A DNA stretch of 41,364 nucleotides, taken from positions 1 through 41,364 of IMG/VR virus record IMGVR_UViG_2909257012_000006; one strand, 5' to 3'. Shown piece by piece: positions 8,979 to 36,355 of this stretch (within the stretch, counting starts at the first letter, position 1; each line of letters starts with the position of its first letter). The notes beneath the pieces were generated by a model that saw nothing but the letters and a program-made list of their open reading frames with translations, made no database searches and was not told the origin of the DNA. The translations under genes and the position numbers were made by a program. Origin of the DNA: a virus. Its lineage: Duplodnaviria > Heunggongvirae > Uroviricota > Caudoviricetes.

Positions 8979-10390
8979 TCCACCGTAAATTGAATGCCTG
9001 ATTTTGAGGTATATGATCCAACCTGATTCCGTGGTTCTCCTGAAGGTGTCGAATCTTGTGCTGGCGCTGCGTCAGTATTCATTGACATATACCGCTTAAC
9101 GGCACTCCCCAATGATTCACCTTTTTTAACATCCAACCCCAATATCTGACCGCCATTACGCGATTGTCCTGGATTGCCATTCGCGCTCATCCACTCGGCT
9201 TTAAACTCATTAAACTGCGCGTTTCGTCGCTCAAGGTTTGCCATCGCATCAAGCCATCTTGCGACCGTCTCAGGGTTATCCATGTCAGTTGGTGCACCCT
9301 GCCGAACGATCTCAACGTCTTTATCCGTTGCGGGGCCGGGAGGTAGGAATTTAAGAACCTGACTGTTAACAAGGGCATTTTGGCGGATGCGCAAATCACG
9401 CAATGTTGTATCGCTTCCGGTAAGTTTTGCGAACATGTTCTGTGCGTTACCGAACAAACCTGTCGTTGGTTTTTCTGCTCTGAACTGTTGAGCAAGCGCA
9501 CTCATAGAATTGGCTGAGTTTGATGATGCTGTAGCATTGTTTACAGCCGTCTCGATGCCTTTTTCCATGTTTACTGACAGCTTAGGTGCTTCGCTAATCA
9601 ACTGCTGAGCCTTTTCCTGTGCTTGCTGCATCTTAAACCCGAACTCTTGCTGATCCAGAGCCAAGCGTTGTGCTGCGATATTGTGTCCAGTCATTGCTGA
9701 CTGATAGGAAAGGTTTTGCCCTCTCGCCTGAAGTGCTTCTCCAGCCTGATTGCTGCGGATTGTCTCTGCCAGTTTGCCTCGGTCAATTTCACGACCAGCC
9801 ATCTTGTCCTGAACAGCAAACGCCTTTTCTGGCCCAAGTGCACCGAGAGACATAGTAGTCAGCATGTGTGATAGCTGCTCTGGATTCTGAATACCTGTCT
9901 GAATCATCCAGTCAGCATTAGCACCAACGCGATTTAACCTATCCTTGTTGTCAGTAATGAATTTACTGTAGGCTTCCGGTCCCTGAGAAAGAGCGACGTT
10001 AGCCCTCATGGCTAAATCGCCCATATCGTTGCGTTGCTGCTCATTAAGACCGGAAAACGCCTGTTGTGCCTGTGCAACAAACGCTGGATTTTCCTTGGCA
10101 AACTTAAATAGTCCCGATGGATCACCAGAAGCCCATGCATCAGCGTGAACCTTATTGAACGCACTAATAGCTTTCTGTTGCTGTTCCTGATTGTAAATAT
10201 CAGCAACTCCAGCCAGACCACGTAACGCGGTCAGGCCAACGTTATTTGCACCTGAGCGAGCCAGTTCATTGTTTTCGCGGATCAGACCAAGCGTTGCGTT
10301 AATGTCGCTTGCCTTTGGCGCATTCTCATTTTGCGTACCGATGCCAGCCAGAAAACCACCAGAATTAATACCCTGTTGCCACGTAGCCAT
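8975..10390 (-). CDS. Ejection protein, P22 gp20-like
   Basis: 471 aa; size and synteny. Confidence 0.7.
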
Positions 10391-32446: not shown

Positions 32447-32510
32447 TTCTTACTATTTCCATAGGTAAATAATCACTAATACCCATCTTTCGATGAGTGC
32501 TTAATTAGTT

Positions 32511-32545
32511 ACCGCGTTGTCGGCGGTGCAGATTGATAAAGAGCG
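32511..32545 (-). promoter_or_regulatory. nutR (boxA CGCTCTTTA and P22-type boxB hairpin ACCGCCGACAACGCGGT)
   Basis: Read on - strand between cro and cII; boxB matches recalled P22 nutR. Confidence 0.65.
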
Positions 32546-32555
32546 GATCCGCTTA

Positions 32556-32771: not shown

Positions 32772-32888
32772 ATGCCCTCCATAGTAACCATGAAACAATA
32801 ATACGATATGTACTTTTGGAATGCAAACAAAAAATACATCTTGTGCATGGATGGTTTTAGTACAGAGCGTAATAATAAGGATATGAAA
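32772..32888. promoter_or_regulatory. Divergent OR/pR/pRM control region between cro and cI
   Basis: 117-bp intergenic region between divergent repressor genes with partial inverted repeats; operators not resolved. Confidence 0.4.
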
Positions 32889-33542
32889 ATGAAATGGTAT
32901 GAACTGGCTAGATCCAGAATGAAAGAGCTCGGCATAACTCAAGAGAAGTTAGCTGAAGAGCTTGGTATGACGCAGGGTGGAATTGGTCACTGGTTGCGCG
33001 GATCTCGTCATCCATCTCTTGACGAGATTGGTGTGGTATTTAAATACCTTGGTATTGATAACGTCTCATTCAACCACGACGGTACATTTTCACCTGTTGG
33101 CGAATACTCATCTGCCCCCGTTAAAAAACAATATGAGTACCCTGTTTTTTCTCATGTTCAGGCCGGGATGTTCTCGCCTGAGCTTAGAACCTTTACCAAA
33201 GGTGATGCGGAGAGATGGGTTAGCACAACCAAAAAAGCCAGTGATTGTGCGTTTTGGCTTGAAGTTGAAGGTAATTCCATGACCGCGCCAACAGGATCCA
33301 AGCCAAGCTTTCCTGACGGGATGTTAATTCTCGTTGACCCTGAGCAGGCTGTTGAGCCAGGTGATTTCTGCATAGCCAGACTTGGTGGTGACGAGTTTAC
33401 CTTCAAGAAACTGATCAGGGATAGCGGTCAGGTGTTCCTACAACCACTAAACCCGCAATATCCAATGATCCCATGCAATGATAGCTGTTCCGTAGTAGGG
33501 AAAGTTATCGCCAGCCAGTGGCCTGAAGAGACATTTAGTTAA
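32889..33542 (+). CDS. cI: CI prophage repressor: novel N-terminal HTH domain fused to lambda-CI-type C-terminal S24 domain
   Basis: C-terminal ~130 aa ([39 protein letters not shown]...) near-identical to recalled lambda CI; N-terminal HTH differs. Confidence 0.9.
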
Positions 33543-33667: not shown

Positions 33668-33696
33668 TTGACTCAATAAAGTACACATCGTACTAT
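33668..33696 (+). promoter_or_regulatory. pL-like sigma70 promoter (TTGACT-17 bp-TACTAT)
   Basis: Near-consensus hexamers with 17-bp spacer, immediately upstream of nutL. Confidence 0.7.
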
Positions 33697-33741: not shown

Positions 33742-33776
33742 GGCTCTTTAACTTCGATGGGGCGCTGACAAAGCGC
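33742..33776 (+). promoter_or_regulatory. nutL (boxA GGCTCTTTA and P22-type boxB GCGCTGACAAAGCGC)
   Basis: boxB identical to recalled P22 nutL boxB; located downstream of pL. Confidence 0.7.
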
Positions 33777-33804: not shown

Positions 33805-33887
33805 CGGTGTGTAGCTCAGCAGGTAGAGCGGATTCGTTGGCTAAGCCGTGGAATCGCGTCACCAGTTCAAGTCTGGTCACACCACCA
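33805..33887 (+). ncRNA. tRNA-like element with canonical acceptor, D and T arms but a 15-nt loop in place of the anticodon loop
   Basis: Hand fold: acceptor CGGTGTG/CACACCA (6/7 bp), D-arm GCTC-AGCAGGTA-GAGC, 5-bp stem GATTC/GAATC enclosing GTTGGCTAAGCCGTG, variable GCGTC, T-arm ACCAG-TTCAAGT-CTGGT; no encoded CCA in register. Confidence 0.45.
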
Positions 33888-33913: not shown

Positions 33914-34033
33914 ATGCTGGAAATTATCACCAACCCAATTCTCGGTGGGGCAATCATCACTTTCGCAATCGGCATCGGATTCACTATCTGGTCTGAAGTA
34001 GATGACTGGATGTGGGAGCGCAAAAACAAATAA
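33914..34033 (+). CDS. 39-aa single-pass membrane peptide
   Basis: GGAG RBS 8 nt upstream; MLEIITNPILGGAIITFAIGIGFTIWSEVDDWMWERKNK has one hydrophobic helix and charged tail. Confidence 0.4.
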   Translation: MLEIITNPILGGAIITFAIGIGFTIWSEVDDWMWERKNK

Positions 34034-34073: not shown

Positions 34074-34388
34074 ATGACGGTAATCGTATACGGAAAATCA
34101 ACATTTGCAGGAAATGCCAAAACTCGCCGTCATGAGCGGCGCAGAAAGCTGGCTATCGAGCGTGATTCCATCTGCAACATCATCGATTCGATCTTCGGCA
34201 CAGACAGTGAGGAAGCTGTTCAGGAAGAACCGAGAAAGCGTTTAAGCCTTTCTGAAAAAGCAATATCACTCGGCATCATTAGTAAATCAAATACAGATGC
34301 GAATGGCGGAAGCGTTTGCCTGCCCGAAGTTGCACTGTATGCTGCTGGTTACAGGTCAATGAAATCAATTACTGCGAGATATAAATGA
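34074..34388 (+). CDS. N-type antiterminator (P22 gene 24-like)
   Basis: MTVIVYGKSTFAGNAKTRRHERRRKLAIERD arginine-rich motif matches recalled P22 gp24; GGAGG RBS. Confidence 0.85.
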   Translation: MTVIVYGKSTFAGNAKTRRHERRRKLAIERDSICNIIDSIFGTDSEEAVQEEPRKRLSLSEKAISLGIISKSNTDANGGSVCLPEVALYAAGYRSMKSITARYK

Positions 34389-34651
34389 CTAGTAAACAAG
34401 TATCATATAAATGCTATTGCCCTTTATGTGGAAGAAAATTCAGCGCCAAGGCAGCATGGAAGCATATCAATGATTATCATCCAAAAGCATCAGAACGTGA
34501 GTTGATGATGATAAGAGATGTAAAACGAGAAAAAATTTCTTTCGCAACAAAGCCACTAAACGCCAACAAAAACGCAATATTGTATCAAATGCATCGTTCA
34601 AGTGGTCCAGATTATTCTGGAGGTCTTCCATCTCTTGGAAAGAAAAAATAA
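34385..34651 (+). CDS. Small protein with C2H2-type zinc-finger motif
   Basis: YKCYCPLCGRKFSAKAAWKHINDYH (C-x2-C-x12-H-x4-H); start overlaps N stop (ATGA). Confidence 0.6.
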   Translation: MTSKQVSYKCYCPLCGRKFSAKAAWKHINDYHPKASERELMMIRDVKREKISFATKPLNANKNAILYQMHRSSGPDYSGGLPSLGKKK

Positions 34652-34784
34652 CCACGCTCACGCTGGTTTTTAATGACATAAATAACCGTATTTACTACCG
34701 CAAGCCACGCAGTGAAATGGGTGTGACTTGTGTTGGTCGCCAGAAAATGAAATTAGGCAGCAAACCACTTATTTGAGGTGAGAT

Positions 34785-35108
34785 ATGGAAGCATTAGTAG
34801 TAGAGCGAAGCGAGGATGGCTACTGGACGCACCCAGAATACGCCAACCTGTTTGGGGATAGAGAGGTAATTTCAGCTGATGAGTTCAGATCTTTCTGCAA
34901 GCAGCATGGCATTGAATCATCAATTGTTGAAATGGAAAACGACAACAATCAAACGGTAATTGACGCGTATTTTGAAGATGGGAATCCAAACATCAGTGGA
35001 TGGGAGCCAAGCATGCCAGATGGAGAAGGATGGTTTGTCGGTTCGATTCACGATACAGAAGACGGTCCGATCTGCGTTTGGTTCAGGAATGTAGATAAGG
35101 CCGCATAG
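34785..35108 (+). CDS. Hypothetical acidic protein
   Basis: 107-aa ORF with GAGGTGAG RBS; stop lies in terminator loop. Confidence 0.55.
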   Translation: MEALVVERSEDGYWTHPEYANLFGDREVISADEFRSFCKQHGIESSIVEMENDNNQTVIDAYFEDGNPNISGWEPSMPDGEGWFVGSIHDTEDGPICVWFRNVDKAA

Positions 35109-35122: not shown

Positions 35123-35207
35123 TGGCACTAACAACTGAAGTGGTTTACTGAATTTGGCCACCTGAACAGAGGTGATATGCTCACCTCAGAACAACACAGG
35201 TGCCATA

Positions 35208-36355
<1,148 letters not shown>

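Follow-up and report, generated by a model that had tools for sequence, protein, structure and literature searches.

A zinc-finger gene overlapping the N stop codon of a lambdoid prophage: a possible addition to the N/Nun guild of elongation-complex factors

Results

The ZnF gene and its product

We analysed a 41,364-nucleotide stretch of viral DNA (Duplodnaviria; Heunggongvirae; Uroviricota; Caudoviricetes; IMG/VR record IMGVR_UViG_2909257012_000006, positions 1 to 41,364), here called the window, and within it a gene for an 88-residue zinc-finger protein (ZnF) that starts on the stop codon of the gene for the antiterminator N (Table 1). Read in the PL direction, this part of the window comprises the immunity and early-left functions of a lambdoid (P22-like) prophage; apart from the PL-like promoter, the + strand has no sigma-70-like site ahead of N and ZnF. 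In the window N, both the arginine-rich motif and the C-terminal tail (..CLPEVALYAAGYRSMKSITARYK) are of the P22 type. An initial annotation of this DNA had described ZnF as an 88-aa protein whose open reading frame (ORF) has an ATG that overlaps the N stop codon; the reading frame, its translation, its start and the overlap are all borne out.

Table 1. Features of the window around N and ZnF, and put RNAs at related loci
Feature	Position	Strand	Basis or remark
nutR candidate between cro and cII: boxA CGCTCTTTA, boxB-like hairpin ACCGCCGACAACGCGGT	32510..32546	-	
cI-like repressor	32808..33542		
PL-like promoter, TTGACT-17-TACTAT	33668..33696	+	consensus scan; consensus match only
nutL: boxA-like GCTCTTTAA, then exact P22 boxB GCGCTGACAAAGCGC (33762-33776)	33744..33776	+	exact pattern match, sequence
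tRNA-like gene in the PL leader, between nutL and N	33805..33886	+	ARAGORN tRNA-Pro(tgg)
39-codon hydrophobic ORF (MLEIITNPILGGAIITFAIGIGFTIWSEVDDWMWERKNK), between tRNA-like gene and N	33914..34033	+	PHROG 7482, E 1e-22
N antiterminator gene, 104 aa	34074..34388	+	Pfam N_peptide E 6.9e-37; PHROG 271
ATGA overlap: ZnF ATG (34385-34387) on N TGA (34386-34388)	34385..34388	+	direct sequence reading
ZnF gene, 88 codons plus TAA stop	34385..34651	+	ORF listing, sequence
CCHH finger, residues C12 to H32 (CPLCGRKFSAKAAWKHINDYH)	34418..34480	+	C-x2-C-x11-H-x4-H; homolog alignment, predicted fold
Second helix, residues 37-50 (ERELMMIRDVKREK)	34493..34534	+	AlphaFold; signature L40, I43-R44-D45, R48
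Basic linker, residues 51-77	34535..34615	+	predicted disordered, pLDDT 53-60
C-terminal peptide SGGLPSLGKKK, residues 78-88	34616..34648	+	conserved short linear motif
Weak terminator-like hairpin and U-run directly after ZnF stop	34650..34671	+	-6 kcal/mol, z -1.3, not significant alone
Untranslated 3' end fossil of phage-21-type N gene (NRIYYRKPRSEMGVTCVGRQKMKLGSKPLI*)	34684..34776	+	identical to SH2026Stx1 N C-terminus
107-codon ORF	34785..35108	+	PHROG 1372
IS3-family insertion sequence, just past the 107-codon ORF	~35172..36355	+	
HK022-type put RNAs, two covarying stem-loops, ending GGCAAAACCCA	L005: 3861-3948; 2510-2586	+; -	Proteus, Pantoea, Arsenophonus-like prophages
Further HK022-type put RNA loci	L009, L045, L046, L049-L061; HK022 (L068) ~9446-9540	+ (HK022)	

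A weak Shine-Dalgarno-like element, GAGA, lies 5 nt upstream of the ZnF ATG, and in a close homolog the junction with N reads TAA-gt-ATG and is preceded by GAGG. Since there is no in-frame start upstream of the ATG and the next methionine is M41, only the overlapping ATG gives a protein with the Cys ligands. The product has a single family match, PHROG 20899 (function not assigned), in which residues 1-88 align with profile positions 1-88 of 88 (expectation value, E, 2e-64). Compared with a 75%-identical homolog, the gene shows 64% nucleotide identity and saturated synonymous sites. Nonsynonymous divergence (dN) in this pair is 0.126 in the finger and the helix that follows it and 0.089 in the last 11 residues; the linker, at 0.36, lies above both, and residues 1-11 reach 0.90. 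Low dN combined with saturated synonymous sites indicates that the ZnF gene is under purifying selection. The protein has an isoelectric point (pI) of 9.9 and a net charge of +12, and the family as a whole is similarly basic (pI ~10, net charge +6 to +14). ZnF is thus a genuine protein of an uncharacterised family.

The metal-ligand motif is C12-x2-C15-x11-H27-x4-H32, of the form CPLC-x11-H-x4-H. The initial annotation quoted the string correctly and miscounted its central spacer as x12, which is the canonical C2H2 length; the actual spacer is one residue shorter. In an alignment of 20 homologs reaching down to 23% identity, C12, P13, C15, F19, H27, I28, H32, L40, R44 and D45 are invariant, and I43 and R48 are at least 90% conserved. 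The invariant aromatic F19 stands four positions past the second Cys and I28 directly after the first His, and the residue at the second core position (W25 in ZnF) varies and is often P, S or Y in relatives. Every family ORF recovered, at 64 of 67 loci, keeps the x2/x11/x4 spacing. The initial annotation had staked the finger on the conservation of its Cys/His spacing in homologs, and both ligands and spacing proved to be conserved.

AlphaFold, run on the 20-sequence alignment, predicts strands at residues 9-11 and 18-20 and helices at 24-31 and 37-50 (predicted local distance difference test, pLDDT, ~84), that is, a beta-hairpin followed by a helix bearing both His ligands, with residues 51-88 predicted to be disordered. 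A classical beta-beta-alpha CCHH finger is supported by this model, and zinc binding is predicted from it. No second finger or dimerisation domain is present in the protein. Searched against solved C2H2 fingers, the family profile matches ZFAT (2elo, E 1.6e-3) and Aart (E 1.4e-5), in alignments that require a one-residue gap. Pfam scores fall below the gathering cut-offs throughout: zf-C2H2 gives 14.1 bits against 25.2, zf-C2H2_4 gives 14.9 against 27, and the best model, zf-Di19, gives 19.6 against 27.5 and is matched weakly by 19 of the 20 family members. Foldseek against the PDB returned no significant match (best E 2.1), with C2H2 fingers making up most of the top ranks, and the archaeal-virus proteins AFV1p06 and B-129 are among the weak structural and sequence matches. 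NCBIfam gave no match to ZnF, and PADLOC gave one meaningless match (E 0.038). The description of the finger as eukaryote-like stands as a resemblance and not as a family membership, all Pfam zinc-finger scores being below threshold. The profile search that the initial annotation proposed, against zf-C2H2 and phage families, succeeds on its phage side alone, with the full-length match to PHROG 20899. The finger belongs to the classical CCHH fold class as a non-canonical variant of a known fold and is not a Pfam-grade zf-C2H2 member.

Distribution of the family

A word-indexed search of 5.8 billion proteins recovered close copies only. An exhaustive phmmer search of 1.84 billion representatives returned relatives of 60-90 residues with 38-64% identity, together with long multi-finger proteins that match via many repeated weak stretches. 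The ZnF gene is present in 13 of 5426 complete Escherichia coli genomes, and a tblastn search of 50,697 phage records found two with a family member, phiKp_30, in which the tail is truncated, and Wanchaivirus PDP110P2. Family members occur in prophages of Escherichia, Proteus, Pantoea and Arsenophonus. A prophage adjoining torS in E. coli EC20 contains an identical segment, in which ZnF occupies positions 166854-167120 of NZ_CM169481.1 and is annotated as a hypothetical protein. In all, 67 loci were collected and sorted by script into subgroups A, B and C. In every locus examined, the family member stands at the promoter-proximal end of the PL operon.

Subgroups A and C: relatives that follow N

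Proteins of subgroup A, the window type, end in SGGLPSLGKK[KR]. Their genes either lie 0-60 nt 3' of an N homolog, an arrangement seen with at least five diverged lineages of N, or come after N and a Nun homolog, and in most cases a terminator is next. The distance from stop to start ranges across the family from a 4-nt overlap to a gap of ~58 nt, so that coupling to N by overlap, as read from the window, is not a general property. Strong hairpin-plus-U6 terminators directly follow the ZnF stop at loci L012, L037 and L040. Because these terminators come right after ZnF, N and ZnF form one immediate-early unit that is transcribed before antitermination is needed. The proposal of the initial annotation that ZnF is made together with N is well founded on this point: the overlap makes co-expression very likely, and three other lineages place a strong terminator after ZnF. 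In some relatives, the ZnF gene adjoins a ral gene and does not take its place.

At locus L039 (3354-4234, +), a lambda-type N (107 aa), a Nun homolog (97 aa) and a window-type ZnF (82 aa) are consecutive, and N and Nun thus co-occur in one phage. The Nun homolog matches HK022 Nun with E 3e-13. With its lambda-type N and Nun, this locus shows that a P22-type N tail is not a constant companion of window-type proteins.

The window shows that the P22-type N tail and ZnF arrived jointly. In phage SH2026Stx1, the first 67 residues of N match the window N with one difference and then continue into a 21-type tail (..NRIYYRKPRSEMGVTCVGRQKMKLGSKPLI). In the window, the 3' end of such a tail survives untranslated downstream of ZnF. 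The P22-type N tail and ZnF thus recombined into an N gene as one cassette, in place of its 21-type tail. The fossil marks a recombination joint inside N; it is also the reason why 1450 E. coli genomes match positions 34639-34790.

Subgroup C is a short form of 54 residues that stops directly after the helix and has neither the window-type nor an N-like tail. It comes after N at three of its four IMG/VR loci, and at L065 and in Wanchaivirus PDP110P2 (L120), both of subgroup C, N went undetected.

Subgroup B: a finger joined to the tail of N

Subgroup B genes are the first past the repressor and PL, have a GGAG Shine-Dalgarno sequence of their own and stand alone in put-type prophages. Most of their protein tails, such as LPQVAQFAAGFRKPTETVTAR, CLPEVARFAAGHR, LSILPQVAQFAAGFRKPTETVTAR, TCLPEVARFAAGHR and VLPSMSLYATTHKKNGRVKDVTARC, resemble the C-terminus of the window N, VCLPEVALYAAGYRSMKSITARYK. 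An hhalign comparison of subgroup B with an N alignment gave a probability of 92% (E 5e-7), running end-to-end at both extreme C-termini; pairwise BLASTP gave E 0.002, and an N-profile hmmsearch matches two subgroup B ZnF proteins directly. As the subgroup B tail is homologous to the P22-type N C-terminus, these proteins are natural fusions of the finger module to an N tail. In lambda N, the C-terminal part contacts RNA polymerase.

Most subgroup B genes are preceded, ~70 nt upstream, by an element of ~77 nt ending GGCAAAACCCAC, a second copy of which often lies on the other strand, after cro. It folds into two stems with compensatory changes (7 of 10 predicted pairs covary) and aligns with HK022 putR, as found by a direct motif search in HK022. 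A blastn search with the Proteus leader against phages gave no match, and no Rfam model matches the put-like element in that leader. Neither the window nor any subgroup A or C locus contains this element. In HK022, put RNAs are used in place of N, and the position of the N gene is taken by nun (PMC9378689); with a put-like element upstream the subgroup B proteins thus occupy the nun slot. The notion that subgroup B prophages never carry N is ruled out by the Arsenophonus-type loci L049 and L055-L057, in which an N-like ORF lies ~1.5 kb downstream. In the Proteus loci L005-L008 (4289-5644, +), a conserved protein of 451 residues, with no Pfam hit on record, is always found 34 nt past ZnF.

The terminal peptide in unrelated proteins

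G-G-x-P-S-L-G-K-K is invariant at the end of window-type homologs, and DNA-pattern scans for GGLP[ST]LGKK were used to look for it elsewhere. In IMG/VR, unrelated viral ORFs (L083, L085, L102 and L069) carry the pattern at the C-terminus or close to it, and it occurs once inside a large protein, directly after a CxxC..H..C finger. The full terminal motif on the unrelated proteins reads [VF]SGGLP[ST]LGKK[KR]-stop. In GTDB, the scan pattern followed by a stop codon occurs in 17 species genomes (L103-L119), against about one expected by chance on our own estimate from the degeneracy of the pattern and the size of the collection. These genomes belong to Acidobacteriota, Comamonadaceae, Aeromonas, Wenzhouxiangella, the candidate-phyla bacterium Roizmanbacterium, Polyangiaceae and Desulfurivibrio. 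About half of the tail-bearing proteins carry one to three CxxC-x11-13-H-x3-4-[HC] fingers, and that of L106 has an arginine-rich N-terminal segment. Next to the tail-bearing genes lie genes for integrases, recombinases and restriction or defence functions; among 111 proteins encoded near 19 of the tail-bearing genes, a Pfam census identified no shared partner. The motif falls outside all models of Pfam, PHROG and NCBIfam, and we found no paper that contains its string. Judged by its sequence distribution, the terminal peptide is a modular and very widely conserved terminal motif.

Other features of the window

The boxB-like hairpin of the nutR candidate differs from the exact P22 boxB of nutL. 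The tRNA-like element in the PL leader scores 38.2 bits with the Rfam tRNA model and has 15 nt in place of the 7-nt anticodon loop; candidate identities are a tRNA that has degenerated or contains an intron, and a leader RNA with structure of its own. In the identical EC20 prophage, the NCBI annotation calls it tRNA-OTHER. We take OrfA and OrfB of the IS3-family insertion to be IS911-like. The EC20 prophage probably lacks this insertion and has a different small gene at that distance.

Discussion

What might a zinc-finger protein made together with N do? The account we tentatively favour, while giving it somewhat less than an even chance, is that ZnF acts on the transcription elongation complex as an immediate-early protein with the same build as N and Nun. 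Four observations lead to it: the finger-plus-N-tail chimeras of subgroup B, the N-Nun-ZnF trio at L039, the N-tail cassette in the window and immediate-early expression. ZnF would be made simultaneously with N, from the PL transcript and ahead of the first terminator. It would consist of an N-terminal recognition module, a disordered basic linker and an extreme C-terminal peptide that docks on a core host machine, most likely the transcription elongation complex. The recognition module would be the CCHH finger with its helix, replacing the arginine-rich motif, and may bind nucleic acid or an elongation factor, for which the basic character of the family is suited, as it is for binding the elongation complex itself. 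The effect would be to aid the phage's own antitermination or, in the manner of Nun, to block that of competitors. The order of finger and helix, disordered linker and basic terminal peptide parallels the layout of Nun, of which the last 23 residues only enter the RNA polymerase cleft, with K106, K107 and W108 needed (PMC5386594).

Several points weigh against this assignment. The window-type tail has no similarity to N tails (hhalign probability 0.1%, which rules out a diverged N tail) or to Nun (BLASTP E 4.4), and a contact between SGGLPSLGKKK and RNA polymerase is suggested by relatives and by analogy. Pantoea-type members of subgroup B end in short tails that carry neither the window-type nor the N-like motif. 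Accessory genes generally accumulate just 3' of N, which makes location by itself a weak argument. ZnF is present in few genomes, and N clearly works without it. The GGLPSLGKK proteins occur in varied mobile-element and defence-island contexts, as they also might if their target were not RNA polymerase. Finally, our literature searches found no relevant paper.

A wider proposal is more speculative, and we regard it as possible and on balance doubtful. It places the family among the N/Nun elongation-complex factors, as their zinc-finger branch, and takes [VF]SGGLP[ST]LGKK[KR]-COOH to be an undescribed cross-phyla docking motif. Mobile elements of hosts as far apart as Enterobacterales, Acidobacteriota and candidate-phyla bacteria would attach this motif to zinc fingers, arginine-rich segments and other modules as a means to reach RNA polymerase or another universal machine. 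Subgroup B would then comprise antiterminators that are independent of an RNA motif, or Nun-like decoys that exclude phages dependent on a P22-type N.

Could ZnF instead be a sequence-specific nucleic-acid regulator that works independently of RNA polymerase? It would act as a DNA repressor or activator (Ros/MucR or GAGA-like) or as a translational regulator on RNA (Mu Com-like). A CCHH beta-beta-alpha finger with basic flanks and a pI near 10 is what such a protein might look like: a single finger with basic extensions can bind DNA, as in GAGA factor, and Mu Com, a small phage zinc finger, binds mRNA. However, ZnF lacks a second finger or dimerisation domain, and the same finger-helix unit is common to N-type and put-type phages with unrelated leaders, which disfavours a phage-specific target site. 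A target-site model also leaves the extreme C-terminal peptide and the swap to an N tail unexplained. We consider this reading rather unlikely.

Somewhat harder to sustain is a role in anti-defence or host takeover, in which a small early protein neutralises a restriction, defence or other host protein via its finger or terminal peptide. The initial annotation had put forward such a role, for which we found no specific support. Its appeal lies in timing and company: ZnF is expressed at the earliest stage, with N and ahead of the first terminator, its rare and patchy distribution is typical of accessory counter-defence genes, ral adjoins it in some relatives, and proteins with its tail motif sit in mobile elements by integrases and restriction or defence genes. 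The sharing of the motif across phyla also implies that its host target is itself conserved, without requiring that target to be RNA polymerase. Yet ZnF resembles neither Ral nor any other anti-restriction family in Pfam, NCBIfam or PADLOC, and ral co-occurs with it instead of being replaced. DNA-mimic anti-restriction proteins are acidic; the pI of 9.9 and net charge of +12 therefore disfavour a role of that kind. The N-type C-terminal tail of the relatives would be left unexplained, and we judge the anti-defence reading to be improbable.

That ZnF is a chance ORF or a decaying gene without function, as its shortness, its absence from most related prophages and the existence of frameshifted or truncated copies (P0003, P0004, P0007 and the tail of phiKp_30) might suggest, is effectively refuted by the conservation data: ligands invariant down to 23% identity, dN far under a saturated synonymous divergence, a position kept in prophages of four bacterial genera and a full-length PHROG match.

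If ZnF does belong with N and Nun, it would be a third kind of small modular lambdoid protein on transcribing RNA polymerase, one that uses a zinc finger where the other two use an arginine-rich motif, and in SGGLPSLGKK[KR] there would be a new motif for docking on a core bacterial machine, usable as a probe or inhibitor. The natural finger-plus-N-tail chimeras offer a direct experimental handle. If the assignment is wrong, the family is still a well-delimited set of immediate-early proteins with obvious mutational targets in the four ligands, the IRD-x-x-R helix and the terminal peptide.

Comparison with known systems

The known anti-restriction proteins Ral, ArdA and the Ocr/KlcA-type DNA mimics differ from ZnF in that none gives a profile match in Pfam, NCBIfam or PADLOC and ZnF is not acidic. 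Ros/MucR and the archaeal-virus proteins AFV1p06 and B-129 share with ZnF a CCHH finger of non-eukaryotic origin; they come from different hosts and have no PL-operon context. Ros/MucR has C-x2-C-x9-H spacing within a larger globular domain. Mu Com, P2 Ogr and P4 Delta are small zinc-binding phage regulators, as ZnF is predicted to be. Com binds mRNA and Ogr contacts RNA polymerase. These proteins have Cys4 ligands, other folds, and other genomic positions and timing, and neither they nor Ros/MucR are among the Pfam matches of ZnF at E up to 10.

The classical C2H2 fingers (TFIIIA, Zif268, ZFAT; zf-C2H2, zf-C2H2_4, zf-Di19) have in common with ZnF the C-x2-C...H-x4-H ligands, the aromatic residue and the predicted beta-beta-alpha fold. 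In contrast, ZnF has a spacer of 11 and not 12, a single finger followed by a family-specific helix, and a bacterial-prophage origin.

Nun of HK022, a transcription-arrest exclusion factor, has an arginine-rich motif, and zinc is bound by its C-terminal histidines and not by a CCHH finger. There is no sequence homology between Nun and ZnF, including the Nun C-terminal HAHQR-x-P-x-KKW, and we know of no exclusion activity for the window ZnF protein. The likeness is one of modular logic and of place: the extreme C-terminal basic peptide of Nun acts in the RNA polymerase cleft (PMC5386594), subgroup B proteins lie in the nun slot 3' of a put RNA, and at L039 ZnF directly follows a Nun homolog.

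The N antiterminators of the P22 gp24 type (PF25694, N_peptide) offer a further parallel. ZnF differs from them in its finger, which replaces the arginine-rich motif, no such motif being present in its N-terminus, MTSKQVSYKCY. Pfam N_peptide does not match ZnF, and the segment CLP-x-V-A-x-Y-A-A-G-Y-R...TAR is absent from the window type and present in subgroup B only. Nor does ZnF replace N, since it adjoins a complete N gene. Both are nonetheless small, basic, largely disordered and modular proteins encoded at the start of the PL operon, and the subgroup B relatives of ZnF carry a homologous N C-terminal tail.

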